Shown here in pieces: positions 18,743-56,443 of a DNA stretch of 64,000 nucleotides. The translations under genes and the position numbers were made by a program. The stretch covers positions 2,892-66,891 of the forward strand of contig JAFWJF010000001.1 in NCBI GenBank assembly GCA_017511715.1, given 5' to 3'. How positions within the stretch are numbered: the stretch's first letter is position 1; each line of letters opens with the position of its first letter. The stretch comes from Alphaproteobacteria bacterium. GTDB taxonomy: Bacteria > Pseudomonadota > Alphaproteobacteria > Rs-D84. The notes under the pieces are model-generated. The model was given only the letters and a program-made list of their open reading frames with translations, was not told the origin of the DNA and made no database searches.

Positions 18743-18762
18743 TGTTTATCGAGGAGGAAAAA

Positions 18763-19490: not shown

Positions 19491-20222
19491 ATGAGAAAGA
19501 TTGTTTTTGTTTTTATTGTTGTTTTTAATGCGCCCCTTGCATACGCTGATTTAATTACCGACAATACTTCTAATTATTGTGATTTTATAAGTATGCAGCC
19601 AAATTTATCGGCAGTATTTGAACCGAATGAATACACCTGTGCAAGCGGTTATTATTTACCTGTGAATCACGATGGGTGCGAACCATGCCCAAGTGAACAC
19701 ACATGCAATGGCGGAACTTTTACTTTTGATGAAAATGAATCACAGGGGATAACGTATGGCACAATAATAACATCTGGATATGATTACGGCTGTGACCCAC
19801 ATCTTGCTTTTGGTTTTTATACGGCGGTATTCGAACCAAATTCTCACGAATGTTCATCGGGTTATTATTTGCCGGCAAGCACCGACGAATGTATAATTTG
19901 TCCGCAAAATTCTTATTGTAGTGGTGGTGTGTTCTTTTTTAATGAAACAGAAAATCAGGGTATAAATACATGTGCGCCAGGTTTATTTTCGCCGTCTGGT
20001 TCGTCATCTGATTCACAGTGTGGACATAAATTACACGTTGGTAATGATGTTGTTTATCTGCGTAGTGTAAAAAAGACAGTGCCATCACTTCATGTGAAAA
20101 TTGGCAATGATATTTATTATGGCAATATGACAAAGATACGAACAAAGATGAACACAGATTTAATGCGGTATTTTCGTATCGGTGATTATTATTTGTGTGA
20201 TGATACAACGTGTCCAGAATAA
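19491..20222 (+). CDS. secreted cysteine-rich repeat protein that shares a ~65-aa C-terminal domain with the giant surface protein
   Basis: Signal peptide. Two CxSGYYLPxxxDxCxxCP repeats. C-terminus CGHKLHVGNDVVYLRSVKKTVPSLHVKIGNDIYYGNMT...YYLCDDTTCPE parallels the last 65 aa of the 3533-aa protein. Confidence 0.6.
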   Translation: MRKIVFVFIVVFNAPLAYADLITDNTSNYCDFISMQPNLSAVFEPNEYTCASGYYLPVNHDGCEPCPSEHTCNGGTFTFDENESQGITYGTIITSGYDYGCDPHLAFGFYTAVFEPNSHECSSGYYLPASTDECIICPQNSYCSGGVFFFNETENQGINTCAPGLFSPSGSSSDSQCGHKLHVGNDVVYLRSVKKTVPSLHVKIGNDIYYGNMTKIRTKMNTDLMRYFRIGDYYLCDDTTCPE

Positions 20223-26432: not shown

Positions 26433-26463
26433 GATTTAAACCACCCGCAAGGGTGGTTTTTTA
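26433..26463. terminator. bidirectional terminator
   Basis: aaaccacccgcaagggtggtttttt. Confidence 0.6.
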
Positions 26464-35162: not shown

Positions 35163-36413
35163 TTATCTGTTTATACAATTCGCAAACGATTGAGATATTA
35201 TTGATGTTTCTGTTGGCGTCAATGTTTGGACTGGCACGACATAACACCGCGAACTGTCGCGAATAACAAAGACTTTTGTGCCCATTTTATATGCATTTTG
35301 CATATTTGTCATTTGTGCAGAACTTAAAAATGAATTTGGCGTTGTCAATGCGTTGTTAGAAAGTCCAGCGTTCACAACTTGCTGTGCGCTTGCATAATCA
35401 TAGATTTCGGACATAGATGTTACTTCCATATATACCGACCAGTTTCCAGGTTTTTCAATTGACGGTTCTGTTGCCGCAGGAAATGCAACGTTTGCCATTA
35501 TCGCAACAGCGTTTTGTAAGTTAGGTGTCGTATTTGTTGTGGTTGGGTGTGCCACCTGATTCAACTGTAAATTATCACCACACGCTAAATTCATACGATT
35601 TGTATAACTTGCCAAAACAGCATCGACAGCGGCCTCCCAATTTGCACCTTTGGAATTCAGGTCAAGGCTTACTATCTTTTCTGCCCAACCCCAAATGCTT
35701 GCCCCTACATTTCCAGCATTAGCAAAACGAGTCACCATTTCGGCCGAACCACCCGCGACACCCGCACCACAATAATCTGTTAATTGCGTTGTTAACATGC
35801 TGTTGGTTTCGTTTCCATATGCCAACGCCACAGAATGACATGCCATGGCGGCTTCTAATTCGCGTCTACGTTGTACACACAAATCAGAATGAGATTTTGT
35901 CAGTTTGTCCGCCATATTTGCCATTGACAAATAAGACATCAATTCTTGTTGGACATAAGACGGGCAAAGACGTGCCGCTGTATTCATCCCGCCAGAACCG
36001 TTTTTAGTGATAGTATTATATTGTGGCAACAAAATTGAAGTATCTTTCTGCAAACAGAGTAATGTATAGTTATATAATTCACTTTCTGTTGCATACATAC
36101 AACGCCCAGAAGTTTTTCCCGGAACAATTGTTGTGTCCCCACAATAATCGGTTAAACAATTCATAATCTTTTGACGACATGCAGTATCAACATCAGGCTG
36201 GGTTATCATAAAATAAGTATTTCGTTGATTTTGTATGTATGCGTTAACCACACCATTTTGACCACGTGATCCGGCATTAGAATAACCAGTTGATGTAGTA
36301 TAAATAGTGGCACGCCCACCATCGTTTGCAACCGTTCCTGCAGATATTGCCATTGCCGCGCCAGACATTAAAAATGCGCCAACACAACCAAATGTTAACA
36401 AGCTTTTTTTCAT
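35163..36413 (-). CDS. secreted hypothetical protein (416 aa, Cys-containing)
   Basis: Signal peptide MKKSLLTFGCVGAFLMSGAAMA. Confidence 0.5.
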   Translation of the reverse strand: MKKSLLTFGCVGAFLMSGAAMAISAGTVANDGGRATIYTTSTGYSNAGSRGQNGVVNAYIQNQRNTYFMITQPDVDTACRQKIMNCLTDYCGDTTIVPGKTSGRCMYATESELYNYTLLCLQKDTSILLPQYNTITKNGSGGMNTAARLCPSYVQQELMSYLSMANMADKLTKSHSDLCVQRRRELEAAMACHSVALAYGNETNSMLTTQLTDYCGAGVAGGSAEMVTRFANAGNVGASIWGWAEKIVSLDLNSKGANWEAAVDAVLASYTNRMNLACGDNLQLNQVAHPTTTNTTPNLQNAVAIMANVAFPAATEPSIEKPGNWSVYMEVTSMSEIYDYASAQQVVNAGLSNNALTTPNSFLSSAQMTNMQNAYKMGTKVFVIRDSSRCYVVPVQTLTPTETSIISQSFANCINR

Positions 36414-36532: not shown

Positions 36533-37604
36533 ATGGTGATTAACAATGAAGTTTTAAATCAAATTGCCGACGACATTTCTGCCGTAAGGGGGTTTCTTTG
36601 ACCCCGAAAAAATTCAATCTGAAATCAACAAATTAAACGATATTTCTAATAAGCCTGATTTATGGGACAAACCGGACGAAGCCCGCAGTGTTTTGCAGAA
36701 AAAATCAAATTTAGAAAAACAGTTGGCTGAATTAAATAGTTTAGAAAACGAATACAAAAATTTGGTTGATTTGTACGATTTGTCGCCAGGAGATCCAGAT
36801 ATCAACAAAGCAGTATCAGAATTGGCGCAATCTGCACACAAAGCAAAATTTATCACTCTATTTAGCGACCCAATGGACAACAACGGCGCGTTTTTATTTA
36901 TTCAGTCCGGTGCGGGTGGTACCGAAGCGCAAGATTGGGCACAAATGTTGTCGCGCATGTACACGCGTTGGTGCGAAAGACATGGTTTTGCTATCGAAGT
37001 TGTCGAAGAACACCCCGGCGATGTCGCAGGTATAAAAAGTATTACGTTCAGAATATCTGGCGAGCGTGCATTTGGTTGGCTGAAAAACGAAATTGGCGTG
37101 CACAGGTTGGTTCGCATATCACCGTTTAACGCAAACGGAAAACGCCAAACCAGTTTTGCTTCGGTTGATGTATGGCCTGATGTTGACGATTCAATAGAAA
37201 TTGAAATAAACGAAAAAGATTTGCGCATTGATACATATCGTGCCAGCGGCGCAGGCGGGCAGCATGTTAACAAGACAGATTCCGCGGTTCGCATAACTCA
37301 TATTCCTACAAATACTGTGGTTACTTGTCAGAACGAACGCAGTCAAATTCAGAACAAAGATATGGCGATGAAAATGTTGCGTTCTAAATTGTACGAACTT
37401 GAAATGCAGAAACGTGCCGCAGAAGAGGATGCAGCAAAAGCCGCCCAAAAGAAAATTGAATGGGGCAGTCAAATAAGAAACTATGTCCTTTATCCATATC
37501 AGTTGGTCAAAGATGTGCGAACAAACGTGGAAAAGACAGATTCTGCCGCGGTTTTAGACGGTGATCTGGATGATTTTATGTTGGCAATGTTGCAACAAGA
37601 GTAA
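36533..37604 (+). CDS. prfB: peptide chain release factor 2 with programmed +1 ribosomal frameshift
   Basis: Frame 0 reads MVINNEVLNQIADDISAVRGFL, then an in-frame TGA at 36599. The +1 frame continues DPEKIQSEINK... into the main ORF, which carries the SPF and GGQ (RASGAGGQHVNKTDSAVRI) motifs. Confidence 0.85.
36585..36602 (+). promoter_or_regulatory. prfB +1 frameshift site (internal SD-like AGGGGG, CTT TGA C slippery context)
   Basis: taagggggtttctttgac parallels the E. coli AGGGGGUAUCUUUGAC site. Confidence 0.8.
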
Positions 37605-38876: not shown

Positions 38877-40691
38877 TTATTTTTGCACAAAGTGTACGCT
38901 GTATTGTGGTTTTTTGTCTGCCCCCAAACTGGCGCGCACGACTTTGTTTGATGCAACCTGAACTGCATGGACTAAATTATCACGATTTTTGCGTTCTGTT
39001 TTGGTTAATTTATCAATCGCATTTGTGATTTCGATTTGTATTTGGCGTTTCATAAAACCTGTGTCATCAGACTCAAAGATTCCTGCACTAGAAACTTCTG
39101 GCACACCTTTAAGGAAACCGCGCTTGTCCACCGGCAAAGTCACAAAGATTGCACCATTTGAAGCGATTTTTTTGCGTGTTTTATACACTGGGTCATTGGC
39201 ACTGCGTTCTGTTTCGCCTTCCATAACGACAAAGCCCGTTGGGATAGATTCGCAAACATACGGTTCTGTGCCGTCTTTGAGCGCGATAACATCGCCATTA
39301 TGGACAATCATCATATGTTTAGCCCCACCGCGTTCCATAGCCATTTTTCCGTTCAACATTTCAGAAATAAATTCCCCATGCATTGGAATTGACACTTGTG
39401 GGTGCACTAAATCATAGAATCTTTCCAATTCAGGACGCCCCGCATGGCCAGAAGCATGCAAATTATCTGTATCAAATATTGTGTAAGTTTTGATACCCAT
39501 GCGCGCCAATTTGTTGTAAAGATAAGAAACGTCTTGTTCACGCCCAGGAATAATAATTGCGCTGAAAACCACAGTATCTGTCGGCATCAATTTCAATTCT
39601 TTTACGTGCCCATTACAAAGACGTGTTAACATAGCGAATTTTTCACCCTGGGAACCGGTCAAGAATATAGCCTGTTTTTCGGCTGGCAAATCTTTGATTT
39701 CATCAAAAGTATAAACGTCATCTTTGCCGATATAGCCGTATTCTATACCGATTTCGCGGAATTCTGGCAACCCGACATAAGGCACAGGATTTGGGTTGCT
39801 GCGTTCTTTGATACAGGCGACCCTGCCTGCGGCTTTTGCGGCTTCTGAAAACATTTTGATACGCGCAAGGCTGCGAGAATAGCCGGTAACCAGTACGCGT
39901 CCTGGTGCTTTTTTCATAATTTCTGTTAACGTTTCACGCACCTGAACTTCTGTAGTTTGTGGGGTTTGTCTTTCTGCCGATGTAGAATCACAAACGCACG
40001 CCAACAATTTTGGGTCGGACCCTATTTCTGCCAGGCGAGTATAATTTGTCTTTGGTTCGATTGGGTTGTCATCATTGAAAGTCCAATCGCCCGTATGCAA
40101 GATTTTTCCAGCCGGTGTCTTGATTATCAACATTTGTGCTTCTGGGATAGAGTGTGAAACATGGAAAGTTTCAACTATAAATGGGTCAAGATTAAGTTCT
40201 GCCCCGTTTGCATCAAATTCGATGATATCTTTTTCTGGGTTATAGTCCAATTCGATTCCATCAAATGTGCGGCGCAATATTTCGGCCGGGAAACGCGTGC
40301 AATAGATAGGTTTTCTAAACTTTGGCCAGATGTATTTCAGTGCGCCGATATGGTCTTCGTGTCCGTGAGTAATAACAAAACCCACGACATCTTTTTTGTG
40401 TTTTTCCAGCCATGTTGTATCACAGTATTGAACATCGCCTGCCCCGATTTCTTCTTCCAAGAAGCCCATACCGCAATCAACGATTAAATATTTACCTTTA
40501 TATTTATATACATACATATTTTGACCGACGTGTTCCAAACCGCCAAGTGCCATAAAATATACTTTATCATCGTTTTTATTGCTTTCCGGTTTTTCTTTTA
40601 CGGTGCTGGCGCGTGCTGGCGCGCTCTTTTTTGTCGTAGTTTTGGCTTTTTTTGCCAATTTTTCTTTAATTTTTTCTTTTATTTTCATCAT
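38877..40691 (-). CDS. rnj: ribonuclease J with Lys-rich N-terminal extension
   Basis: Metallo-beta-lactamase HGHEDHIG, beta-CASP and RNase J C-terminal domain. N-terminus KIKEKIKEKLAKKAKTTTKK. Confidence 0.9.
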   Translation of the reverse strand: MMKIKEKIKEKLAKKAKTTTKKSAPARASTVKEKPESNKNDDKVYFMALGGLEHVGQNMYVYKYKGKYLIVDCGMGFLEEEIGAGDVQYCDTTWLEKHKKDVVGFVITHGHEDHIGALKYIWPKFRKPIYCTRFPAEILRRTFDGIELDYNPEKDIIEFDANGAELNLDPFIVETFHVSHSIPEAQMLIIKTPAGKILHTGDWTFNDDNPIEPKTNYTRLAEIGSDPKLLACVCDSTSAERQTPQTTEVQVRETLTEIMKKAPGRVLVTGYSRSLARIKMFSEAAKAAGRVACIKERSNPNPVPYVGLPEFREIGIEYGYIGKDDVYTFDEIKDLPAEKQAIFLTGSQGEKFAMLTRLCNGHVKELKLMPTDTVVFSAIIIPGREQDVSYLYNKLARMGIKTYTIFDTDNLHASGHAGRPELERFYDLVHPQVSIPMHGEFISEMLNGKMAMERGGAKHMMIVHNGDVIALKDGTEPYVCESIPTGFVVMEGETERSANDPVYKTRKKIASNGAIFVTLPVDKRGFLKGVPEVSSAGIFESDDTGFMKRQIQIEITNAIDKLTKTERKNRDNLVHAVQVASNKVVRASLGADKKPQYSVHFVQK

Positions 40692-40802
40692 TTAGTATCC
40701 TTTTTTAAGGTTTAACATTTTGCGCACCCACCAAATTCATTGTCAATAAAGACATATTTTCTTTATCAATAGTAAATCTGTGGGTGTGCGACTTGTGACA
40801 AA

Positions 40803-40824
40803 AGACATATTAAGAAAAATATGT
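40803..40824. promoter_or_regulatory. perfect 7-bp inverted repeat with 8-bp spacer upstream of the giant gene
   Basis: gacatat taagaaaa atatgtc. Confidence 0.3.
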
Positions 40825-40953
40825 CGTTGTTTTTATCATATTCTGTATAATATCGCAAAAAACACACAAAATCAAGGAATAATATTTATGCAGTGTGTTA
40901 TTGGAAAAGCTGTCAAAACAAAAAATAAAAAAAATTACAACAAAAAGCGATTG

Positions 40954-40988
40954 ACACATTACGGAATTTTTTTCTACACTGATAGACA
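40954..40988 (+). promoter_or_regulatory. putative sigma-70 promoter of the giant surface-protein gene
   Basis: TTGACA, 17-bp spacer, TACACT. AAGGAAG RBS 9 nt before the ATG at 41012. Confidence 0.3.
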
Positions 40989-41011
40989 AGAAAAGAAGGA
41001 AGTTTGTTCAG

Positions 41012-44000
41012 ATGGCGGGAATCAAGCCTTTTTATAACATGTTAAAGCGTTTAATATTTGCAATATTCGTAGTGTTTACTGCAAATTCTGCATTTGCGGC
41101 GTGTGCTAGCAATCAAATTGATGTAAATGGTGATGGAACCAAATGTGAGGATGTGAAATTCACATTAGACCTTTCCAGAAGTTCAAACATAACGGTTTTC
41201 AATTTCTTTATGTCTGCCAAAGGAACATTTTATGTCGATTGCGGCAATGGCGGAACATTGACCAGCAATTCTGCCACTAATTACCCGGTATCGGGCAAAA
41301 CAGTTAACCGTACCTATGGAACGGGTAATGTAAGGTACTCTTGTACATGGGCCAATGGCAGCAAGACACAAACAATTAGGTTTGGTGGGGTTGCAGAAGG
41401 ATATAGCACCAATACAAGCACCGCCGCAATACGTTTTAATTATAATGCAACACAAGCGGCATATATAACATCAGTTTCTGGTAATTTGTCCGCTATGTTC
41501 CCGTATATTACAAACAATGCACAAAGTGGTGCACAACCAAGATTTTATATGACTTTTGATAAAGCGACAAACCTGAAAAGTATCCCCGATACATTGTTTG
41601 CAAATTACACAACACCGGCAACAAATATGTTTCATTCTACGTTTAACAATTCAGGATTGACATCAATACCTAGCAATTTGTTTTCCACCATATCTGGCGC
41701 AGCAGAAGGTCTGTTTTCTAGCACATTTAATGGATGTACCGGCTTAACATCAATACCTGGCAATTTGTTTTCCACCATATCTGGCGCAGCAAACAGCTTG
41801 TTCTATGGCACATTTCAGAATTGTACCGGCTTAACATCAATACCTAGCAATTTGTTTTCCGGGGTGTCTGGCGGGGCAAGTTCTATGTTTTTTTTCACGT
41901 TTAAAGGATGTACCGGCTTAACATCAATACCTGGCAATCTGTTTTCCACCATATCTGGCGCAGCAAACAGCTTGTTCTATGGCACATTTAGTGGATGTAC
42001 CGGCTTGACATCAATACCTAGCAATTTGTTTTCCACCATATCTGGCGCAGCAGACGGTCTGTTTTCTAACACATTTAATGGATGTACCGGCTTAACATCA
42101 ATACCTGGCAATCTGTTTTCCGGGGTGTCTGGCGGGGCAAGTTCTATGTTTTCTTACACGTTTAATGATTGCAGTTCGATATCTGCAATACCGGCAGGAC
42201 TATTTTCCGGTGTAAACCAGGCGGCAACAGGTTTGTTCATGAATGCATTTTCTGGTTCTGGGGTAAGTGGTTATATACCACCGACCACATTTTCCGGGTT
42301 GATTTCGGCGGGCAGCCCACAAAGTTCAGATATGTGGCTAGATACATTTTCATACACGAATTTAACAGCGACTTGTCCACAGGGAACAACGCAGTATATG
42401 ACAGGATACGAAGGTGGCACTAATGGTCCTACATGGAATGGGATGGTTTCTTGTACGCCAAATTCGACCACTGCAATTGCAGTAACTTTGGACAGTGCAG
42501 GCGCGACCACAAATGCCACACCTTCGACAATATATCTTCGATACGAGGATCGTTGGTACAGTAATTCTGCCCTTTCTGTTCAGATAAGTTCGCTTAACAC
42601 CATTCCATCAAAAACGGGATATATGTTCGGCGGTTTTTACACTCAACCAAATGGTTCCGGAATACAAATTATCAATTCAAATGGTTACATCTTGCAAACC
42701 ATGGAAGCAATCACGTTTACAACCACACCGACAACCGTGTATGCTTATTGGATAGAACCAAAGTTCACATTAACAACATCATCGACCAACAGTTTTCAAT
42801 TTAAACTATCTGCCGCTGGTACATTCTATGTAGACTGCGGAAACGGTGGAACGTTAAGTGGAACCGGGGCGTCCGGAAACACAATTACGCGTGCCGACAC
42901 AACCGAAGCGACATATACATGTTCATGGACCAACAGTGCAACACGAACAATCAGATTCAGCGGTGCCGCAACCGGGTATAATTCGTCTTATGGTGTTGCA
43001 GCAATAAAGTTTAATATGACAGATGCTGCCACTGATGCAAACGCAGCATTGTTAACGGGTATGTCTGGCACACTGGGGTCAATATTCGGAACAGTTGCCA
43101 CCGCCAGCACAGGCTCTGTTCAACCAGCATTTAATAAGACATTTTATGGTGCATCAAACCTTAATGCGTCAATACCGTCAAACTTTTTTGCGGGCGTTCA
43201 TGGTGCACCACGCGGGGGAATGTTTCAACAAACCTTTTCTGGATGCAGCAGTTTGACCGGCTCTATCCCAGAAACCCTATTCTGTGAAAACACGACCAAT
43301 CCAAGTGCATCAAACTGTATCTATGGAGCACCAATTGGGGCAATGTTTGAACATACATTCCTTGGTTGTAGTGGTTTGACGGGTTCTATCCCAGAAAAAC
43401 TGTTTGTGGGTATCCATGGCGCGCCTGCAAGTTATATGTTTTCTCAGACATTTAATGGATGTAGTGGTTTGACGGGTTCTATCCCAGAAAAACTATTCTG
43501 TCAAAACACAACCAGCCCATCTGCATCAAACTGTATCTATGGCGCACCGGCATCATCTATGTTTGCCTTGACATTTTATGGATGTAGTGGATTAACTGGC
43601 TCTATTCCAGAAAAACTGTTCGTTGGTATCCATGGTGCACCAGCAAATAATATGTTTCAACAAACATTCTATAATTGTAGTGGTTTAACTGGCTCTATTC
43701 CAGAAAAACTATTCTGTCAAAACACAACCAGTCCATCTACATCAAACTGTATCTATGGCGCGCCGGCAAGAGCTATGTTTTTTCACACTTTTTCTGGTTG
43801 TACAAATTTAACTGGTTTGATACCACAAAACCTTTTCAAAGGGATATACGGCGCGCCGGCAGAAAATATGTTTAATGGTACATTTAGGAATGACAACAAA
43901 TTGACAGGAATAACCGACGGCACAACTACCACAACCTATGTTCCATCAACATTCCTTAGCGCGATTAACAACACAAGCGCAACAACACCAGCAACAGGAA

Positions 44001-47000
44001 TGTTTACTGGTACGGGGCTTGCATCGTCTTGTCCGACGTGGGCAGCCGCCGCAACACCGGTATGGGCAACTGATGCTGGTAAGCCATGGTGCGAACCAGA
44101 TATAAAATTCACATTAAACACATTAGCGACTAACAGTTTTCAATTTAAACTATCTGCCGCTGGTACATTCTATGTAGACTGCGGAAATGGCGGAAGGTTA
44201 AGTGTGGTAAACGGTAACGGAACAGTTTCTGGGAATACGATAACAAAAACAGGTACTTCGTGGGGGACATTTGAATGTTCTTGGGATGATACCGAACCAC
44301 AAACACTTCGATTTGGTGGTGCAGCATCAGGGTACACTGCAAGCCAATCAGGCGGTGCAATAAGATTTAATGTTTCTGATACAAACCAAGATGATGATAC
44401 AAACGCACCAAAGATCACCGGAATATCCGGGTCATTGGGTGCAATATTTGGAACCATAGATGGCACGGTTTCCCCAACAGGCGCGGAATCACAACCAAGA
44501 TTCTATGGAACATTTTGGGCTGCATCCAACCTTGCTGGTTCAATACCAGACGAGCTTTTCTATGGCATACATGGCACACCAATATCATATATGTTTAACC
44601 GTACTTTCCGTGGTTGTAGCAGTTTAACTGGAAAAATACCTGAAACATTATTCTGTCAAAACACAAGCAACCCAAATGCATCAAACTGTATTTATGGCGC
44701 ACCGACACAACAGATGTTTTACATGACTTTTCACGGATGTAGCGGTTTGACAGGAAATTCTTCAACCGGATATGCCATTCCTGCAAAATTATTTGCAGGT
44801 ATTCGTGGTGATCCATCTTCAGCATCGAGTGTGTTTGGTTATACATTTTCCGGTTGTAGTGGTTTAAATGGGCAAATACCTGAAACATTATTCTGTCAAA
44901 ACCCGAACAGCCCCAGTGCATCAAACTGTATCTATGGTGCGCCGGCATCAAATATGTTTTCATTTACATTCCAAGGATGCACTGGTTTGACAGGTGACGG
45001 TATACATGCCGTTCCAGTAAAGTTGTTTGCAGGTCTCCATGGCGCGCCGGCACCAAAAATGTTTCAATCTACTTTTACTGGCGACACAGGATTGACAGGG
45101 GAAATTCCACCTGCGCTATTCTGTGGTGGTAATACGAATAATCTGAGTAATCCATCTGCCTCAAACTGTATCTATGGCACCCCGGCAACAGAAATGTTTA
45201 ATAGTACGTTTTATAATACTAGAATAACACATGTAGATAAAAATATGTTTGCGGGGATATCCGGTACTTCTGCGGAAAAGATGTTCTATCGTACATTTAA
45301 AAGTTGTAGTTCATTGTCGTACATAAATGATACCTTTAACACAAAAGCGACAACTTACATTCCGTCAGATTTCCTTGGTGGCATTACTGATGGATCCGTG
45401 ACAAATGACGCAACAGAAATGTTCACAGGTACGGGACTCACATCACCTTGTCCGACGGGGACAGCCACCGCAACACCGGCGTGGGCAACGGATGCTGCCA
45501 AACCATGGTGTGCACCCAACACATATAGCATTACATATGATATGAATGGTGGAACAAACTATTCCGGCGCACCTACAACATATGTTTATGGGACAAGTAC
45601 AACAATTAATGGCGCACCAACAAAATCAGGCTATATATTCAAAGGATGGACTGGTTCTAATGGTTCAACACCACAACCAACCGTGACGATTGGTGCAAGT
45701 GCCACCGGGGCAAAATCTTACACTGCGAACTGGGAAACGGCAAAATTCACATTAACCACATCAGGAATGAGCGATTTCAGCTTCAAGCTTTCGCCAAAGG
45801 GAACATTCTATGTCGATTGCGGAAATGGTGGAACGTTAAGTGGTCAAAGCGCGTCCGGCAGTACAGTTTCCGTCAACACAATCACACGTACAACCACAAC
45901 CGCAACAACATATACTTGTAGCTGGGCCAGTAGTGCTGGAAACAAAACAATATCTTTTGGCGGGTCTGCCACAAATACCACAACAACATATAACTCAGAT
46001 ACGAACGTACCAGCAATACATTTTTTGGAAAGTAGTAATGCAGACTCAATCAAAAGCGTATCTGGTAATTTGTCCGCGATGTTCCCGTACATCACATCAA
46101 ATGCACAAAGTGGTGCTCAACCAAGGTTTAACAGAACATTTTATGATGCAACACACTTGACCAGTGTTCCCGATACATTATTCGCAAATTATACCACACC
46201 CGCAACATATATGTTTAGTAATACATTTGCAAGTTCTGGGTTAACATCGATACCGGCGGGACTGTTTTCCCGCATAACCGGTGCAGCAACCGGTTTGTTC
46301 GAGGGTACATTTAGCGGTGCGCGCTTAACATCAGTGCCGGCGGGGCTATTTGCCGGGATATCTGGTGTGGCAGACAGTTTGTTTAATAGCACATTTACTG
46401 GCACACCAATAACATCTATACCAGAGAATTTGTTTGCCGGGGTATCGGGGTCTGCATCTGGCGTGTTTTCTTACGCTTTTTATCGTTGCGCTAGCCTGGC
46501 CACCATAACAAATGGGCAAACAAGTACGACCTATGTTCCGGGAACGTTCCTTAGTGATGTTACTGGCAATGACAATTACATTGGTGCCGACATGTTTGGC
46601 ATGACAGACTTGGCTGACACCTGTCCATATGGTATGGGCGATACAACACCGGCATGGGCAAGTGATGCTGGTAAACCATGGTGTTCTCCCAATACATATA
46701 CAATAACCTATTCTGCCGGTCAAGGTGGCGTTGGTGCAAACCAAACGGAAAACGTTGTGTTTGGCACCACATTTACCACAAAATCTGCAAATACGTTTAG
46801 TAAACCACACGCTACATTTACAGGCTGGGATACTCTTGAATACTCTTCAGCCTGGACACAACCAGATACAACATATACTTATGATTTGCCGTCAGATATT
46901 ACGATTGCAGCACAATGGACATGTGATTCTGGATACACATTAAATAACAGCACCGGAAATTGCGATGCCAACAGTATCACATGTGATCCAGGTTTTTATC

Positions 47001-50000
47001 TGAAAGGCAACACTCTAACATGTACGGCATGTCCTGCTGGTAAATATTGCGCGGGTGGCACATACACTCATAACGGTACGGACTTAGGTATAACTGGCGA
47101 TGTTACGGCGGGATATTTTGCTTCTGGTGGTGCAAAGGTCGCAGCCCCAACCAGCAACAGCGATTGCTTAAGCGGTAATACATGCGGTAAATGTACGACA
47201 GATTCTGCCACTGGTCGTCCTGCGTATTCAACAGCTGGAGCAGCAAGTTGTTCGGCATGCCCTGCAGTAACGGGCGATATGGCAAGTCGTGTTATCTCTT
47301 ATGCAGGTTGGTGGAGCAACGATATACATAATGCGGTTACAGGATGCGCTGCCTGGTTCAATGATACAGATAATGATGCAACATTCAGAGTGTATTGCTA
47401 TTATAACACTACAGATGGTGCCTATGGTGGTTCAAACAGCATTTGCCAAGTATGGCATCCGACTGCTTGTGCAGCAGGAAAATATGATACGATAGAATCA
47501 ACAACGGAATGGCTTGCTTCTGCTAATTACACACGTGGGAAAGGTGTAGATTTCATGAATGGCAAGGTTTGTACAAACACAGATGCAGGTTATTACAGTG
47601 CCGAAGGTTCTTTGACACAAACCGCATGTGCAGCAGGCTCTTACAGCAGTGCGGGCGCAAGTACATGTACGGCATGTCCGGCGGGTAAGACAACCGCTGG
47701 CACTGGAACGGCTTTCAACACTAATGCAAACACTACATGTTCAACAAGTTGTTCGTCTATCGCAAACCTGAAAACTTGGAACAGTCAGACTTGGAACAGC
47801 GCAAATAATACAGTGACTAATTTGTGCACGGTTGCAACTTGTAATGCTGGGGCATATAAGTCTGGTAACACTTGTCCGGTTTGTGGTGCGAATTCTTGGT
47901 CAGATGATGGTGCAAGCAGCTGTACAGCATGTAACACGACCAATGGATACACGAACAGTGGAACAACAGCGGCGGCTCATGCTGGTCAGTACAGTTGTAA
48001 GACCACGTGTGCGGCAGGTAAACAAGTTGCAAGTCCTGGCGAGGCATGTTCTACCCCCGGTGGCAGTTGGTATTCTGTTCAACACACTGTAGGGGAAGGA
48101 TCGACATCCGCTGTTCAGCTGATAAGTAATCCGAATGTATTTGATTGTTTAATTGGTGGCTATGCAACACCTGACACAACTATACAAACAGACCACGATG
48201 CAAGCACAGATTGTAGGATAACATGTTCTGCAGGAAGCAGAGTCACAACGCCTAATGGTATGTGTACAGCGATAACGAGTGGCAATGTATATATGCTTGA
48301 ACATACTGTTGCCCAGGGATCTACATCACCAAAAGCAACATCATGCCCAACAAGTTATACAATCAGCGGTTCTACACAAGCAGACCACGATGCGAAGAAC
48401 GATTGTAAGATAACATGTGGTGCTGGATATGTTGTTGACACAGAAGATGGTAATTGTATTGTGCCAGAAGAAGGTTTCCAGACAGGGATACATACAGTAA
48501 GCGCAGGAAGTGTGACACGAATAGATAAAGATCCAGGCATGAACGTACCCCGTGCAGGAATATGGTATGACTGTTTGACTAACTATAGTGCGACAGGCAA
48601 AAGCGCAATCAACCACGATCAAAGAAGTGATTGTAAAATAACATGTAATGCGGGAACACAGATTGCAACTAACAATGCAACTAGGTGCACGACACCGACA
48701 GGAAGTTGGTACACAGAACAACATACAGTAAGTGCAGGCAGCACGAGTAGTCCAACCAGTTGTGCGACAGGCTATGCAACAGCAAACACATCAACCGCAA
48801 CAGACCACGATGCGCAAGCCGATTGTAAGATTGGGTGCAGTGCTGGATATTATATACCAACAGCAGGTGGTGGATGCAAGGCATGTCCTGCTGGTAAATA
48901 CTGCACAGCAATAAGTGGTATTGCAGAAACTGCAACATCTGCCGCGACAGGAAACATAACGGCTGGGTATTTTGCTTCTGGTGGTGCAAAGGTCGCAACC
49001 CCAACAAGTAGCAGCGATTGCTTAAGCGGTAATACATGCGGCACATGCCAGGGACAGAATGGACCAAATGGTCGTCCACTTTATACTGATGCAACCGGCG
49101 GCGCAGCACAATGTTCTGAGTGTCCAGCAGTAGAAGCATCTTTAACAAGTCGTGTTGTCTCATATGGTTATTGGCCAGATACGCGTGACAGAGGGATACA
49201 AAATTGTTCTGCGAAATTCACTGATACAGATCCTGATGCTACGTTTACTACGGAATGTTATTATAGAGGCTCTAATTATCATGAATCCTTTAACTGTCAA
49301 ACCGCCGCACCAACCGCTTGTGCTGCGGGTAAGTATGAAACTATCAGAACAACAGACAAATGGGGCACATATTACGCCATTGGTACTGGAGTAGATCATA
49401 TGAACGGTAAGGTTTGTACGGATACAGATGCAGGTTATTACAGTGCCGAAGGTTCTTTGACACAAACCGCATGTGCAACGGGTTCATACAGCAGTGCTGG
49501 CGCAAGTACATGTACGGCATGTCCGGCGGGTAAGACAACCGCTGGCACCGGAACAGCTTTCAACACTAATGCAAACACTACATGTTCAACAAGTTGTTCG
49601 TCTATCACAAACCTAAAAACTTGGAACAGTCAGACATGGAACAGTTCAAATAATACAGTGACTAATTTGTGCACGGTTGCGACTTGTAATGCTGGGGCAT
49701 ATAAGTCTGGTAACACTTGTCCGGTTTGTGGGGCGAATTCTTGGTCAGATGCTGGTGCAAGCAGCTGTACAGCATGTCAAACAGATTATACCAACAGCGG
49801 AACAACAGCGACAAACCATGCAGGAAACGCATCTTGTAAGATAACTGTATCTGGCGGTCATTATATTGGCACACCCGGTCAAAACAGCACAAACTGGGGA
49901 ACATGTGATGCAGGAACCTTTAAGGCGCAACATACCGTGGCATATGGCAGCACAAGTAGTTGTTCGAACTGCGAAGGCAGAACGAAGTACAGTGCGGCAG

Positions 50001-51613
50001 GTGCATCATCTTGTTCAACTGTAAGCAGTGGATATTACTCAACAGGATGTACATCTAATAATAACTGTACAGGACAATCACAGTGTACGGGTGCAACATA
50101 CTGTGCAAGTGGTGTACAAAACAACTGTCCGACAGCAGAAAGCACATGGACACAGGGTACTGGTAATGGATGGACAGCTGTAACACAGTGCTTTGAGACC
50201 AAGAACGCAACAGATGTAAGCAGTTATTGCAGTGCTGGACAATTAAAGAAGAACGCTACGAACACCACGACCTGGGGCGACAGCACAATAAGCACAGCGT
50301 TGAAAGCAAAAGCGGGTTCTATTGTAAGCGGACAAACATGTACACAATGTACAGGTGCCACATTCTCGGCTGGTGATACTGCGACAAGTTGTAGTGCATG
50401 CCCGACTGGATATGATGCGAACACAGATGCTGGCAAGAGCACGAACACACAATGCCAGATAAGTGTGACGGGCGGTCATTATATTGGTACGAAGGGTCAG
50501 ACAAGTTCTAACTGGGATACATGTGCGGCAGGTACATACAAGGCAGCACACACTGTGAACTATAACAGCACAAGTAGTTGTTCGAACTGCGAAGGCAGAA
50601 CGAAGTACAGTGCGGCGGGTGCATCATCTTGTTCAACTGTCACCAGCGGATACTATTCAACCGGTTGTGACACATCGACAAACAATAACTGTACAGGACA
50701 ATCAAAGTGTACTGGAAAAACATATTGCACAAATGGTGTACAGGAAGATTGTCCAGCCGCAGCTGATCACAAACGTACAACGTTCCCAGCAGCATATTAT
50801 TCGCCAACAATTACAAGCACATCCATAATGAGTGCCAGTAGACGCAAGGCAATCACAGAATGTAAGGCTTCTTCGACAATGACTGGGGCACGCGGAACAT
50901 TGATTGATCAAGCAACATATAACCCAACCACAGAAGAATACGACACCACAACATGGTATGGATATTATAATGTTAAACCGGGGTATTATTTGACCACCAC
51001 GGGCAGTTGCGGAACATACGCATACTATCAAAATGCGGAAATTTGTCCAGATGGTGCTTATTGTCCGGGCAAGGCGGGGGTTAAGTGTGATTCTAGCAAC
51101 GAAGCAACCGTTCATACGCCAACATTCGGTCTGGAAGAATGTTCAGCATTGAACAGCGAATATACAAAATCTGATAGTGGGCGCAATGCAGCAACCGATT
51201 GCTATCTGAACACGACAGCAACAAAATATGTTGCAACTGCTGGTGAAAACCAAGTTGATTGTATTGCAGACGGATATTGTCCGGGTAATGTAAAGATATA
51301 TTATAACAGCATTGGTGGACGCACTGCGTGCCCTGCCACAGCACCATATAGTGGCGCGGGTATGTCAAGGCCCGAACAATGCGGACGCAAGTTGCATATT
51401 GGCGATAACGTAATGTATTTGCGTTCTGAAAAAGCAACGACACCTTCGCTGAACGTCAATTTTGGTGGCATGACATATTATGGAAATATGGCAGAAACCC
51501 AAGCAAACATTACAAGTTCTTCAACCAAAGAATTGAAGATTAAATACAAAAATAATAACAAATTGTACTACTTGTGTGATGACACAACCTGTCCAGAGGC
51601 AGACAACGATTAA
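41012..51613 (+). CDS. giant secreted mosaic surface protein (3533 aa): four N-modules with BspA-like LRR blocks, Listeria-Bacteroides repeats, ephrin-receptor-like Cys-rich repeats, conserved C-terminal domain
   Basis: Signal peptide MAGIKPFYNMLKRLIFAIFVVFTANSAFA. Four copies of KFTL..F.FKLSAAGTFYVDCGNGGTLSG...TYTCSW...TIRFGG. LRR repeats LFxxISGAAxxLFxxTFxGCTGLTSIP. Repeats of the form YxITYxxNGG...GYxFKGW. More than 20 C..G.Y..(A)G...C..CPAGKxxxG motifs. Single uninterrupted ORF. Confidence 0.9.
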   Translation: MAGIKPFYNMLKRLIFAIFVVFTANSAFAACASNQIDVNGDGTKCEDVKFTLDLSRSSNITVFNFFMSAKGTFYVDCGNGGTLTSNSATNYPVSGKTVNRTYGTGNVRYSCTWANGSKTQTIRFGGVAEGYSTNTSTAAIRFNYNATQAAYITSVSGNLSAMFPYITNNAQSGAQPRFYMTFDKATNLKSIPDTLFANYTTPATNMFHSTFNNSGLTSIPSNLFSTISGAAEGLFSSTFNGCTGLTSIPGNLFSTISGAANSLFYGTFQNCTGLTSIPSNLFSGVSGGASSMFFFTFKGCTGLTSIPGNLFSTISGAANSLFYGTFSGCTGLTSIPSNLFSTISGAADGLFSNTFNGCTGLTSIPGNLFSGVSGGASSMFSYTFNDCSSISAIPAGLFSGVNQAATGLFMNAFSGSGVSGYIPPTTFSGLISAGSPQSSDMWLDTFSYTNLTATCPQGTTQYMTGYEGGTNGPTWNGMVSCTPNSTTAIAVTLDSAGATTNATPSTIYLRYEDRWYSNSALSVQISSLNTIPSKTGYMFGGFYTQPNGSGIQIINSNGYILQTMEAITFTTTPTTVYAYWIEPKFTLTTSSTNSFQFKLSAAGTFYVDCGNGGTLSGTGASGNTITRADTTEATYTCSWTNSATRTIRFSGAATGYNSSYGVAAIKFNMTDAATDANAALLTGMSGTLGSIFGTVATASTGSVQPAFNKTFYGASNLNASIPSNFFAGVHGAPRGGMFQQTFSGCSSLTGSIPETLFCENTTNPSASNCIYGAPIGAMFEHTFLGCSGLTGSIPEKLFVGIHGAPASYMFSQTFNGCSGLTGSIPEKLFCQNTTSPSASNCIYGAPASSMFALTFYGCSGLTGSIPEKLFVGIHGAPANNMFQQTFYNCSGLTGSIPEKLFCQNTTSPSTSNCIYGAPARAMFFHTFSGCTNLTGLIPQNLFKGIYGAPAENMFNGTFRNDNKLTGITDGTTTTTYVPSTFLSAINNTSATTPATGMFTGTGLASSCPTWAAAATPVWATDAGKPWCEPDIKFTLNTLATNSFQFKLSAAGTFYVDCGNGGRLSVVNGNGTVSGNTITKTGTSWGTFECSWDDTEPQTLRFGGAASGYTASQSGGAIRFNVSDTNQDDDTNAPKITGISGSLGAIFGTIDGTVSPTGAESQPRFYGTFWAASNLAGSIPDELFYGIHGTPISYMFNRTFRGCSSLTGKIPETLFCQNTSNPNASNCIYGAPTQQMFYMTFHGCSGLTGNSSTGYAIPAKLFAGIRGDPSSASSVFGYTFSGCSGLNGQIPETLFCQNPNSPSASNCIYGAPASNMFSFTFQGCTGLTGDGIHAVPVKLFAGLHGAPAPKMFQSTFTGDTGLTGEIPPALFCGGNTNNLSNPSASNCIYGTPATEMFNSTFYNTRITHVDKNMFAGISGTSAEKMFYRTFKSCSSLSYINDTFNTKATTYIPSDFLGGITDGSVTNDATEMFTGTGLTSPCPTGTATATPAWATDAAKPWCAPNTYSITYDMNGGTNYSGAPTTYVYGTSTTINGAPTKSGYIFKGWTGSNGSTPQPTVTIGASATGAKSYTANWETAKFTLTTSGMSDFSFKLSPKGTFYVDCGNGGTLSGQSASGSTVSVNTITRTTTTATTYTCSWASSAGNKTISFGGSATNTTTTYNSDTNVPAIHFLESSNADSIKSVSGNLSAMFPYITSNAQSGAQPRFNRTFYDATHLTSVPDTLFANYTTPATYMFSNTFASSGLTSIPAGLFSRITGAATGLFEGTFSGARLTSVPAGLFAGISGVADSLFNSTFTGTPITSIPENLFAGVSGSASGVFSYAFYRCASLATITNGQTSTTYVPGTFLSDVTGNDNYIGADMFGMTDLADTCPYGMGDTTPAWASDAGKPWCSPNTYTITYSAGQGGVGANQTENVVFGTTFTTKSANTFSKPHATFTGWDTLEYSSAWTQPDTTYTYDLPSDITIAAQWTCDSGYTLNNSTGNCDANSITCDPGFYLKGNTLTCTACPAGKYCAGGTYTHNGTDLGITGDVTAGYFASGGAKVAAPTSNSDCLSGNTCGKCTTDSATGRPAYSTAGAASCSACPAVTGDMASRVISYAGWWSNDIHNAVTGCAAWFNDTDNDATFRVYCYYNTTDGAYGGSNSICQVWHPTACAAGKYDTIESTTEWLASANYTRGKGVDFMNGKVCTNTDAGYYSAEGSLTQTACAAGSYSSAGASTCTACPAGKTTAGTGTAFNTNANTTCSTSCSSIANLKTWNSQTWNSANNTVTNLCTVATCNAGAYKSGNTCPVCGANSWSDDGASSCTACNTTNGYTNSGTTAAAHAGQYSCKTTCAAGKQVASPGEACSTPGGSWYSVQHTVGEGSTSAVQLISNPNVFDCLIGGYATPDTTIQTDHDASTDCRITCSAGSRVTTPNGMCTAITSGNVYMLEHTVAQGSTSPKATSCPTSYTISGSTQADHDAKNDCKITCGAGYVVDTEDGNCIVPEEGFQTGIHTVSAGSVTRIDKDPGMNVPRAGIWYDCLTNYSATGKSAINHDQRSDCKITCNAGTQIATNNATRCTTPTGSWYTEQHTVSAGSTSSPTSCATGYATANTSTATDHDAQADCKIGCSAGYYIPTAGGGCKACPAGKYCTAISGIAETATSAATGNITAGYFASGGAKVATPTSSSDCLSGNTCGTCQGQNGPNGRPLYTDATGGAAQCSECPAVEASLTSRVVSYGYWPDTRDRGIQNCSAKFTDTDPDATFTTECYYRGSNYHESFNCQTAAPTACAAGKYETIRTTDKWGTYYAIGTGVDHMNGKVCTDTDAGYYSAEGSLTQTACATGSYSSAGASTCTACPAGKTTAGTGTAFNTNANTTCSTSCSSITNLKTWNSQTWNSSNNTVTNLCTVATCNAGAYKSGNTCPVCGANSWSDAGASSCTACQTDYTNSGTTATNHAGNASCKITVSGGHYIGTPGQNSTNWGTCDAGTFKAQHTVAYGSTSSCSNCEGRTKYSAAGASSCSTVSSGYYSTGCTSNNNCTGQSQCTGATYCASGVQNNCPTAESTWTQGTGNGWTAVTQCFETKNATDVSSYCSAGQLKKNATNTTTWGDSTISTALKAKAGSIVSGQTCTQCTGATFSAGDTATSCSACPTGYDANTDAGKSTNTQCQISVTGGHYIGTKGQTSSNWDTCAAGTYKAAHTVNYNSTSSCSNCEGRTKYSAAGASSCSTVTSGYYSTGCDTSTNNNCTGQSKCTGKTYCTNGVQEDCPAAADHKRTTFPAAYYSPTITSTSIMSASRRKAITECKASSTMTGARGTLIDQATYNPTTEEYDTTTWYGYYNVKPGYYLTTTGSCGTYAYYQNAEICPDGAYCPGKAGVKCDSSNEATVHTPTFGLEECSALNSEYTKSDSGRNAATDCYLNTTATKYVATAGENQVDCIADGYCPGNVKIYYNSIGGRTACPATAPYSGAGMSRPEQCGRKLHIGDNVMYLRSEKATTPSLNVNFGGMTYYGNMAETQANITSSSTKELKIKYKNNNKLYYLCDDTTCPEADND

Positions 51614-55267: not shown

Positions 55268-56443
55268 TCAAATAGATTTTTGTTTTAATATACGAATGTA
55301 TTTTTGTATTTCTGTTGTTGCTCCGTGGATTAAGAAAGCTTTTGGACATGCGCATCGTTTAGCATCGGTATCACATTTCATCAAAGAGCATAAATTACAA
55401 TTCATTGTTTGCAAAGCAACACATGCGGGCATCATAGATACTATAGGTTCTTGATATTTGGTGTATAATTTAGAATATTCTTCTGGTTTGTTCTTTCTTA
55501 AATTCATCAAAAATAAATATACCGCACACACATTACGCGCAACACGAGCACATTGTCTACGTTTTCTTCTTGCTTCGTTGCTCGTCTTGCAGTGATCTTC
55601 TTTGTTTGCTTCGTAATATTTTTTGCGTCTTGTTTTTATTTTTGCACTGTTTTCTTGTCTATATTGTTTTTGTTGTGTCAATATGTCATTTTTGTTTTCT
55701 TTATAGTATTTTTTTCTTTTTATACTTCTTTCTTCTGCGTGTTCAGCATTATATTCTCTTTGATGTTGTAAAATTTTATCTTTGTTTTCTTCATAATATG
55801 CTTTGTGTTGAACCTGCCGTTTTGCCTTGTGTTTTTGATACATAGCAGCCAAATACACTTTATAAATATCTTTGCGTTCTTGATAGTCCGCTTTTTTTCT
55901 GGCTAATAATTCTGTTTTGTGTTCCTGATAGTATCTGGTCACTTTTTCGATAATTTTTTCCCTGTTCTTTTTATAATATTTTTTGTCTTTATTTCTTTTT
56001 TTTATTTTTATTTGTTCTGATTTTTCCAACAATATTTCTTTTATTTTATTTGCAACAGGTTTTGTTATCAAACGTGCGTTTTTGTTTGCTTTTCTGGTTG
56101 CCTCATTTAAATGCAACAAACGCTTCAATGTTATTGAAAAAGGTATTTTTAACCAAATTAAACTCACCATATCATTTTTTAGATATGCGGTCCCCGCAAT
56201 CAAATCTATGAAATCAGATTCTGTGAAAATGTCTTCTATGCTTTCTGAAGTTAAAAAAGTTTTTATATCTTTTTCATGTTCGGAATCAAATAAATACCAT
56301 TCTGTAACAACTTCTGCAAAAGAAGAAACGTGTTGCGCCACAGTATTTTTTGTTGCATATGTTATCGCATTTAAACCATCGGCAACACAAACTTTACCTG
56401 ACAATTCTTGAAACAAAGATTCTATTTCAACACTATTTCGCAT
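55268..56443 (-). CDS. K/E/Y-rich tandem-repeat protein with Cys-rich C-terminus, unknown function
   Basis: Roughly 25-aa repeats of the form (R/K)KKYYKENK(D/N)xIxxxQxxYxxE, six or more copies. C-terminus has 9 Cys. Confidence 0.5.
   Translation of the reverse strand: MRNSVEIESLFQELSGKVCVADGLNAITYATKNTVAQHVSSFAEVVTEWYLFDSEHEKDIKTFLTSESIEDIFTESDFIDLIAGTAYLKNDMVSLIWLKIPFSITLKRLLHLNEATRKANKNARLITKPVANKIKEILLEKSEQIKIKKRNKDKKYYKKNREKIIEKVTRYYQEHKTELLARKKADYQERKDIYKVYLAAMYQKHKAKRQVQHKAYYEENKDKILQHQREYNAEHAEERSIKRKKYYKENKNDILTQQKQYRQENSAKIKTRRKKYYEANKEDHCKTSNEARRKRRQCARVARNVCAVYLFLMNLRKNKPEEYSKLYTKYQEPIVSMMPACVALQTMNCNLCSLMKCDTDAKRCACPKAFLIHGATTEIQKYIRILKQKSI

Follow-up and report, generated by a model that had tools for sequence, protein, structure and literature searches.

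A giant mosaic protein with a Sec-type signal peptide from a gut alphaproteobacterium and its module-shuffling relatives

The window analysed here, a 64,000-nucleotide stretch of DNA from an alphaproteobacterium of the Rs-D84 lineage, contains an open reading frame of exceptional length, which raises the question of whether it is a genuine gene and, if so, what kind of protein it encodes. The ORF spans positions 41012..51613 on the + strand and encodes 3533 amino acids plus the stop codon, which bears out the first-pass annotation of a single 10.6-kb reading frame. Its product is identical to the sequence P0241 and to NCBI entry MBR3147764.1 from an Alphaproteobacteria MAG, where it is labelled "InlB B-repeat-containing protein". 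A Shine-Dalgarno-like sequence, GAAGGAAG, was read at 40995..41002 (+), 9 nt 5' of the ATG at 41012. The gene sits between RNase J and rpsD, and its neighbours are housekeeping genes. From the N-terminus to the C-terminus, the protein consists of a signal peptide, N-terminal heads each combining a PKD-like domain with leucine-rich repeats (LRRs), three interspersed Flg_new spacers, a cysteine-rich stalk, a β-sandwich designated as CT1, and a C-terminal domain designated as CT2.

The 10.6-kb gene is a real gene for a giant protein. Approximately 9.75 kb of it is identical in two other assemblies. A further same-strain assembly from ENA (L002/P0383) encodes a protein of 3768 residues, with zero substitutions and two extra repeat units: a 29-residue LRR inserted after residue 214 (nucleotide ~41654) and a 206-residue cysteine-rich unit inserted after residue 3042. 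In the third assembly, L001, the scaffold is interrupted by a gap of 100 Ns precisely where the 206-residue repeat lies. Since the two other assemblies agree but the unit counts differ, the gene is reproducible while the repeat counts and the length of 3533 residues are uncertain; the counts are either polymorphic or partly collapsed. The internal repeats are 40–88% identical to each other and thus too diverged for wholesale collapse. Wholesale repeat collapse or chimerism was rejected from the concordance of the assemblies, with the number of units still uncertain.

The gene had also appeared to be more GC-rich than its surroundings, and the computed values agree with this impression (0.42–0.47, compared with 0.37–0.40 in the flanks). 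The excess lies wholly at codon position 2 (0.592 vs 0.362), and the GC content at codon position 3 (GC3) is 0.339, compared with 0.341 ± 0.038 for the 25 other genes in the window. The GC excess is an effect of amino-acid composition and gives no sign of foreign origin; the codon composition is native. Horizontal acquisition of the gene was rejected because its GC3 is the same as that of the other window genes. A phage origin was also rejected, as merely six weak loci were found among 2.9 million viral contigs. An ORF that is not native to this genome, whether as an assembly chimera, a collapsed-repeat artefact, or a recent acquisition from a eukaryote, is highly improbable. Such an origin would account for the variable unit counts, the gap within a repeat, the elevated GC content, and the presence of repeats related to Ephrin_rec_like, a domain that is treated as eukaryotic in origin with rare bacterial cases (PMC6993872), but it is at odds with the identity among assemblies, the divergence of the internal repeats, the matching GC3, the location between RNase J and rpsD, and the homologues with named sources, which come from the same bacterial lineage.

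Residues 1-29 (41012..41098, +) form a Sec-type signal peptide with a probable A-F-A|A cleavage site; the N-terminus reads MLKRLIFAIFVVFTANSAFA|A. This agrees with the signal peptide proposed from the initial inspection, and the segment is the only hydrophobic one in the whole protein. Alternatively, Cys31 could be a lipobox cysteine, as the AFAAC sequence fits a loose PROSITE-type pattern. Close homologues have the sequence AxA|(A)C..IDV.GDGT.C, in which the position of the cysteine relative to AxA varies, whereas the majority of the family shows a plain AxA site and no cysteine.

The N-terminal half was described as four copies of a module of about 100 residues, each followed by a block of LRRs. 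We found four such modules, which are mutually 40–60% identical with E-values from 1e-25 to 1e-81, and each carries F..TF.GC.GLT..IP..LF repeats with units of 28-29 or alternating 31/41 residues. Module 1 (residues 45-492; 41144..42487, +) consists of a PKD-like cap, approximately ten LRRs of 28-29 residues, and a cysteine-containing C-cap; at the nucleotide level it includes a tandem array with a period of 87 nt, 5.3 copies, and 81% matches. Module 2 (residues 582-1026; 42755..44089, +) has a PKD-like cap, LRRs alternating between 31 and 41 residues, with a Cys-loop insert in the 41-residue units, and a C-cap. Module 3 (residues 1027-1502; 44090..45517, +) has a PKD-like cap, LRRs of 29-45 residues, and a C-cap, and module 4 (residues 1575-1894; 45734..46693, +) has a PKD-like cap, approximately six LRRs of 28 residues, and a C-cap.

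At the level of fold, the repeat blocks do form genuine LRR solenoids, which are curved and structurally similar to LRR proteins of known structure. The first-pass annotation had assigned them to the BspA type, and this part of the assignment did not hold. Pfam LRR_5 (PF13306; gathering score of 27.7 bits) gave no match to the whole protein at E ≤ 1 or to the isolated LRR blocks at E ≤ 10, while another ORF in the window (32289-33875, minus strand), used as a positive control, scored 63.2 bits. BLASTP detected no similarity between the giant protein and this LRR_5 gene. Membership of LRR_5 was rejected on these grounds. Because the profile is silent here and scores 63 bits on another window gene, the repeats represent a distinct and longer LRR class. 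Searching the family profile against the PDB yielded weak matches to the FLS2 LRR (8e-4), the PKD domain of 4xed (0.03), and 4fs7 (0.033).

The module of about 100 residues had been presented as novel. The module exists, but its novelty was not supported, as homologous N-modules exceed the Pfam PKD/PKD_4 cut-offs (P0044, 30.6 vs 23.5 bits; P0063, 36.5 vs 27 bits). In the Pfam segment scan, the window protein itself matched neither PF00801 nor PF18911, and the PKD signature WxxGDG...Y.H.Y is altered in it to VDCGNGG...TYTCSW. A β-sandwich is predicted for the N-module with high confidence. Taken together, the homologue scores and the model indicate that the N-module is probably a divergent PKD-like β-sandwich capping each LRR block.

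Listeria-Bacteroides repeats, also called Flg_new, had been noted between the modules, and they are present, with one clear copy and two weaker ones. The repeat at residues 1503-1574 (45518..45733, +) exceeds the curated thresholds of both Pfam PF09479 (32.0 vs 27 bits) and NCBIfam TIGR02543 (List_Bact_rpt; 34.8 vs 20.95). A Flg_new-like repeat at residues 1895-1972 (46694..46927, +) covers profile positions 1-64 of 65 with a sub-threshold score of 21.8 vs 27 bits. The spacer at residues 493-581 (42488..42754, +) is weak, with 13.1 bits for Pfam Flg_new; its E-value of 5.8e-26 against a home-made FLG HMM comes from a copy that belonged to the seed of that HMM. Flg_new repeats make up less than 7% of the giant protein. 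In all, the modules, these repeats, and the cysteine-rich duplications described below agree with the first-pass picture of a mosaic, repeat-built protein.

The stalk region extends over residues 1973-3260 (46928..50791, +; ~1300 residues) and is built from three types of unit: CysA (residues 2004-2320 and 2622-2935), CysB (four units of ~75 residues within 2313-2622), and CysC (residues 2916-3042 and 3124-3250). The giant protein has 156 cysteines, an even number with none in the signal peptide, and 107 of the 156 are located in the C-terminal half, which is enriched in Cys, Thr, and Ser and contains 16 CxxC motifs. This half carries diverged duplications, in which residues 2004-2367 resemble 2622-2983 with 55–77% identity, and the two CysC units are 68% identical. 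Ephrin-receptor-type repeats had been proposed for this half. Ephrin_rec_like (PF07699) is above its threshold in eight homologues (25–44 bits) but remains sub-threshold in the giant protein (18.5 bits for the whole protein and 20.4 for each of two segments, vs 23.1), where the matches span just two or three stretches of ~40 residues within a region of ~1500 residues. Since the homologues pass the threshold and the giant protein does not, the relationship holds at the family level only. The CysB and CysC units, which constitute most of the ~1300-residue stalk, have no Pfam match.

Two domains follow the stalk. For CT1 (residues ~3261-3346; 50792..51049, +), which has no Pfam match, AlphaFold2 predicts a β-sandwich, with strands at model positions E646-724 and pLDDT >90. 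CT2 comprises the last ~90 residues (51332..51610, +) and has the pattern CGRxLHxG..YLRSxKxTTPSLNV..G..YYGNM...Y.v.DD; six β-strands were predicted with pLDDT of 65-85. A jackhmmer search found CT2 in 183 of the 383 collected proteins, one copy each, and in 168 of the 183 it lies at most 25 residues from the C-terminus, behind passenger regions that differ from each other. It is a conserved, previously undescribed domain with no sequence match in Pfam or the PDB. The window encodes a small paralogue of 243 residues (19491..20222, +) with a signal peptide, two cysteine-rich repeats, and a CT2 domain (hmmsearch E = 5.6e-24); its C-terminus, YYLCDDTTCPE, resembles the end of the giant protein. 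The paralogue is a member of a conserved group comprising 64 proteins with lengths of 150-325 residues.

As CT2 has no known homologue, an anchoring role for it is a guess from its position alone. An anchor of the trimeric-autotransporter type was rejected, as CT2 lacks a terminal aromatic residue, a coiled coil, and a YadA_anchor match. The giant protein also has no LPXTG motif, no C-terminal transmembrane segment, and no Pfam secretion or anchor domain. The lack of a recognisable anchor would suit a released exoprotein, for instance an effector or a soluble protein for binding or scavenging, which would be shed to the gut lumen or passed to a partner, and many single-module relatives end in the LRR C-cap without CT2. 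We regard a released protein as rather improbable, because a single-copy C-terminal domain on very different passengers is rather what would be expected of a module for sorting or anchoring and because the elongated stalk-and-heads layout of at least 3500 residues fits a tethered fibre.

Homology searches placed the protein in a broad context. At least 812 matches were obtained with module 2 as the query and at least 271 with the C-terminal 913 residues, and after clustering at 50% the family comprises 1234 representatives. Among the 140 top-ranked representatives analysed, 35 have 2500 residues or more and the largest has 6622; these giant relatives surfaced only in the exhaustive representative search, not in the module-wise searches. 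A single MAG (Ca. Enterousia or other Alphaproteobacteria; ruminant, human, or mouse gut) holds up to 11 family loci. Homologues with a source name come from gut MAGs of Ca. Enterousia / Rs-D84, a lineage found in the guts of ruminants, humans, mice, and birds, in line with the inferred host association of the source bacterium. The first-pass view that the composition is unusual was not sustained, as many relatives recombine the same modules and several are far larger. By sequence comparison, the giant protein appears to be an ordinary member of a large, uncharacterised, module-shuffling family of surface proteins. Ca. Enterousia / Rs-D84 genomes are ~1 Mb or below; glycolysis is incomplete and respiration is missing, and published work describes these bacteria as genome-reduced and likely to depend on a partner (PMC12306168).

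We consider it reasonably probable that the protein is an envelope-anchored, partner-binding adhesin on a cysteine-rich stalk, one of many module-shuffled paralogues in an uncultured gut bacterium of the Ca. Enterousia / Rs-D84 type. The N-terminal signal peptide would direct Sec-dependent export, and CT2, together with the adjoining β-sandwich, may tether the protein to the envelope or govern its sorting. The ~1300-residue cysteine-rich region would form a disulfide-stabilised stalk of Ephrin_rec_like/TNFR-like repeats and project the four heads, each a PKD-like cap with an LRR solenoid, with the Flg_new domains as spacers. The surfaces of the solenoids may then bind ligands on a partner cell, the host surface, or mucus. 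Paralogues would arise by module shuffling, and gain or loss of repeat units would alter their length. In this scheme the disulfides, the CT2 anchor, the direction in which the protein points, and adhesion itself are inferred.

The many paralogues per ~1-Mb genome and their combinatorial architectures could alternatively point to a variable surface coat or decoy that serves antigenic or phage-receptor variation or shielding rather than adhesion; the CXXC-rich VSPs of Giardia and the variable surface proteins of mycoplasmas would be parallels. The two whole-unit indels without substitutions between the same-strain assemblies would fit such a coat, as would the Cys-, Thr-, and Ser-rich C-terminal half with its 16 CxxC motifs. 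So would the distribution of the gene, which is missing at the same site in related species, while L003 has a different giant gene elsewhere. We judge a coat unlikely, since LRR solenoids usually serve as scaffolds for binding ligands and the unit indels could have arisen in assembly (cf. the L001 gap); a coat would also be compatible with adhesion.

A broader and tentative proposal, which we consider more doubtful than probable, is that the family is a lineage-specific combinatorial surface system in which PKD-LRR heads, Flg_new spacers, Ephrin_rec_like stalks, and a CT2 sorting or anchoring module are combined into dozens of proteins, a number of them giant. It may serve obligate attachment to a gut partner, either eukaryotic or microbial, and its cysteine-rich repeats would be an ancient acquisition from eukaryotes or a large bacterial reservoir of a domain hitherto seen as eukaryotic. 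The family, which is unannotated, is seemingly the main extracellular toolkit of Ca. Enterousia / Rs-D84. It holds three elements outside current domain libraries, namely the PKD-capped LRR class, several cysteine-rich units, and CT2, and it would represent a substantial set of Ephrin_rec_like-type repeats in bacteria. Defining these modules would help to localise the proteins, identify the partner, and annotate a family of more than 1200 cluster representatives.

Among known systems, BspA and TpLRR proteins (LRR_5; BACOVA_04585, PDB 4fs7, and T. pallidum TpLRR, PDB 6mlx) share the 'F.GC..L..IP' core with the giant protein and, like it, are secreted or located at the surface in microbes associated with a host. 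LRR_5/TpLRR units have ~23 residues, whereas those of the giant protein have 28-41, with a PKD-like cap per block and no LRR_5 match. Internalin B and other InlB B-repeat proteins are similar to it in having at least one Flg_new repeat, in combining LRRs with spacers, and in being exported. Internalins have 22-residue LRRs, an internalin N-cap, an inter-repeat Ig domain, and GW modules. In contrast, the giant protein is alphaproteobacterial, has longer units and no LPXTG motif, and matches no Pfam LRR or GW family; Flg_new is its only Pfam match above threshold.

The stalk shares the C..G.Y...G...C..CP.G motif with the Ephrin_rec_like (GCC2_GCC3) and TNFR-like repeats of the Eph receptor CRD and ELAPOR1. 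In contrast to the eukaryotic repeats, the homologues with named sources come from a single bacterial lineage and the codon composition is native, and the ligand-binding and kinase context of Eph receptors is missing. Giant adhesins of diderm bacteria (RTX adhesins, trimeric autotransporters, and Bap-like proteins) are huge proteins with repeat stalks, distal binding domains, and variable repeat numbers. The giant protein matches no RTX, autotransporter-barrel, or YadA-anchor model in Pfam or NCBIfam, and it differs from the RTX adhesins in having a Sec signal peptide instead of a C-terminal T1SS signal. In its size, its repeat-built stalk with putative distal binding domains, and its variation in repeat number, it resembles these giant adhesins.

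The giant gene, at 41012-51613 (+), is one ORF for a protein of 3533 aa, as the first-pass annotation had described, and this product is identical to MBR3147764.1 ([quoted passage not shown]); the protein is in NCBI already, yet uncharacterised. A ribosome-binding-like sequence (GAAGGAAG) is located 9 nt 5' of the ATG within a 320-nt intergenic region, from which the RNase J gene diverges. The N-terminus (MAGIKPFYNMLKRLIFAIFVVFTANSAFA, followed by AC) has the n/h/c layout typical of a Sec signal peptide, and no other hydrophobic segment is present. The composition is extreme, with Thr, Ser, Gly and Ala accounting for 48% of the residues, and 107 of the 156 cysteines lie in the C-terminal half and none in the signal peptide. 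Self-comparison and home-made HMMs gave the following layout: the signal peptide (aa 1-29), module 1 (aa 45-492), a Flg_new-like spacer (aa 493-581), modules 2 (aa 582-1026) and 3 (aa 1027-1502), Flg_new (aa 1503-1574), module 4 (aa 1575-1894), a second Flg_new-like spacer (aa 1895-1972), a cysteine-rich region (aa 1973-3260) of two ~315-aa CysA, four ~75-aa CysB and two CysC units, a predicted β-sandwich designated CT1 (aa ~3261-3346), and a conserved terminal domain designated CT2 (aa ~3441-3533). Each of the four modules has a PKD-like cap and an LRR block. The proposed secreted mosaic of LRRs, Flg_new and cysteine-rich repeats in a host-gut alphaproteobacterium thus stands, while the overall reading built on it is supported in part.

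Two assemblies of the same species from ruminant gut metagenomes (L001 and L002) are 99.6–100% identical across the locus, and L002 shows zero amino-acid substitutions over aa 491-3533. The full-length variant from L002 (P0383, 3768 aa) differs by exactly two insertions, an LRR unit (29 aa) following aa 214 and a cysteine-rich unit (206 aa) following aa 3042; in L001, a scaffold gap of 100 N falls at this 206-aa repeat. The internal repeats are diverged (79–88% matches in tandem DNA arrays and 40–77% identity between protein modules). Together with the agreement of the assemblies, this indicates that the gene is real and reproducible, so that collapsed repeats remain a concern for the repeat counts only, where polymorphism and partial mis-assembly are the two alternatives. 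As noted by eye, GC is higher in the gene than in its flanks (0.44 vs ~0.39). A comparison with the other window genes placed this excess entirely at codon position 2 (0.592 vs 0.362), owing to the Thr/Ser/Gly/Ala/Cys-rich composition of the protein, while GC3 (0.339) equals that of 25 other genes (0.341 ± 0.038); no compositional sign of foreign origin was found in these measures. The interpretation of the gene as an artefact or a recent foreign arrival is largely refuted, and we regard it as highly improbable.

The AlphaFold2 model of module 2 (93 homologues; pLDDT 97.6, pTM 0.93) predicts a β-sandwich at the N-terminus followed by a solenoid, and a Foldseek search of the PDB gave no significant match. 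The LRR units (consensus MF..TF.GCSGLTG.IP..LFAGISGAPA..) are 28–29 aa long in modules 1 and 4; in modules 2 and 3, units of 31 aa alternate with units of 41 aa, the latter containing a C(x)10C loop. Pfam LRR_5, to which the repeats had been assigned as BspA-type, did not match the giant protein even at E ≤ 10 on isolated LRR blocks, while it scored 63.2 bits on the window ORF 32289-33875 (-), the positive control. The latter ORF (528 aa; GC 0.318, low for the window) is a clear BspA-type match, and BLASTP found no similarity between its product and the giant-protein repeats. These repeats are therefore true LRRs that share a BspA-like core motif yet lie outside LRR_5. The ~100-aa N-module appears to be a PKD-like domain that has diverged; at this position homologues score above the Pfam cut-offs for PKD/PKD_4, and the consensus of the family reads GTFYVDWGDG...TYSHTY..AG.YTI. 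PKD HMMs miss the giant protein because the signature Trp and His are both replaced by Cys in it and in a sub-branch (VDCGNGG...TYTCSW).

In the cysteine-rich half, two or three ~40-aa stretches scored 18.5–20.4 bits with Ephrin_rec_like, below the cut-off of 23.1, and TNFR_ELAPOR1_6th scored ~17 bits. Eight homologues passed the Ephrin_rec_like cut-off with 25–44 bits, and the suggested ephrin-receptor-like label is therefore reasonable at the family level; for the giant protein itself it is not established and would cover a minority of the region. The literature places the origin of the domain in early eukaryotes and attributes the rare bacterial cases to horizontal transfer (PMC6993872). 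AlphaFold2 modelled aa 2622-3533 confidently across ~aa 2890-3420 (pLDDT 80–95) and poorly over the first 270 residues (~30).

CT2 (CGRxLHxG..YLRSxKxTTPSLNV..G..YYGNM....Y.vyDD) matched neither a Pfam family nor a PDB sequence. By jackhmmer, it was present in 183 of 383 collected proteins, always as a single copy and in 168 carriers within 25 aa of the C-terminus. The passengers that it accompanies are LRR modules alone, Cys units alone or a combination of the two. A domain that sorts or anchors proteins would be expected to show such a strictly terminal position across varied passengers, and CT2 may be one. Release of the giant protein as an exoprotein would agree less well with such a role, and we consider it quite improbable. 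A small protein in the window (19491-20222 (+), 243 aa) consists of a signal peptide, two Cys-rich repeats and CT2, and ends in YYLCDDTTCPE as does the giant protein. It is one of 64 small proteins that form a conserved group, and Pfam DUF7631 matches some of them. Immediately upstream, the product of the ORF 18742-19488 (+) has a signal peptide, a Flg_new repeat scoring 28.6 bits (cut-off 27) and a further domain without assignment.

Although described as unusual in composition, the protein has an architecture typical of a large lineage-specific family, which includes modules absent from domain libraries. Module 2 retrieved at least 812 proteins, mostly single-module forms of 450–790 aa lacking Pfam annotation, and the C-terminal 913 aa at least 271. 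An exhaustive search with aa 1575-2700 gave 1234 representatives at the 50% cluster level; among the best 140, 35 are ≥2500 aa (longest, 6622 aa), PKD-LRR modules and Cys units occur together in only 10, and all four module types in only 3. The architectures are combinatorial. Many single-module relatives (P0003, P0011, P0027 and others) have a conserved VNVEYIHKLI.Q.W.I.VPY segment before the PKD-like cap and end in a distinct LRR C-cap (GLTGPSAR..G.YLY..WP.....MY....LSDY..IP..WK) instead of CT2, suggesting at least two sub-classes with different termini.

In a scan of one genome per species, the module-carrying MAGs were labelled Ca. Enterousia, "Alphaproteobacteria bacterium" or "uncultured proteobacterium" and came from gut samples of ruminants, humans (Hadza, UMGS860) and mice; a single MAG had up to 11 family loci, and one genome, which is closed, measures 958,618 bp. 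Only 6 weak loci were found in 2.9 million viral contigs. A single member in a Paludibacteraceae (Bacteroidota) MAG (JBGUIU010000302.1) is probably a binning error rather than a transfer, since the contig is short (4,074 bp). Published descriptions give Ca. Enterousia and the order Rs-D84 genomes below ~1 Mb, with incomplete glycolysis, neither a TCA cycle nor respiration, and none of the standard nutrient transporters, and a partner-dependent lifestyle was proposed (PMC12306168). Our literature search found no paper linking Rs-D84 and leucine-rich repeats.

The giant gene is flanked by housekeeping genes (prfB, tRNA-Arg, RNase J, rpsD, trpS and xerC), with rpoD, cysS, recN, an alpha-type addA, tsaD and xseA farther away. 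In related species (L003-L006, ~80% nucleotide identity), RNase J directly adjoins rpsD on the same strand without the giant gene, while in the window (region compared, 38877-41011) RNase J is inverted and separated from rpsD by the 10.6-kb gene. L003 has a 4229-aa member at another site, beside an Amidase_3 gene, and this site is empty in the window. Close relatives therefore differ by the gain, loss or relocation of family members. Such turnover and the combinatorial architectures would be compatible with a variable coat, protective or antigenic in role, but this reading is rather unlikely; it and adhesion are not mutually exclusive.

Elsewhere in the window, prfB (~36535-37604 (+)) contains a canonical programmed +1 frameshift site (AGGGGG TTT CTT TGA C, ~36585-36603), and its long ORF covers only positions 47-352 of TIGR00020. 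One ORF at 26461-28200 (-) matches AccD (aa 13-278) and AccA (aa 304-563), which suggests a fusion of the beta and alpha carboxyltransferase genes of acetyl-CoA carboxylase. No NCBIfam match was found for the ORFs 35163-36413 (-), 55268-56443 (-), 57042-58448 (-), 29714-31141 (-), 16169-18112 (+) and 914-2029 (+), and five of the six, scanned against Pfam, gave no significant match. The ORFs 55268-56443 and 57042-58448 keep their positions in related species (L001-L006), as does a counterpart of 35163-36413 in L003; 35163-36413 has an unusually high GC2 (0.47).

On balance, the giant protein is probably an envelope-held binder whose ligands lie on a partner cell or on the host surface. Sec would export it and the CT1/CT2 region would keep it at the envelope, with the cysteine-rich part extending as a disulfide-stabilised stalk that presents the four PKD-LRR heads, spaced by Flg_new, to these ligands. 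We group it with the known giant modular surface and adhesin proteins of bacteria.
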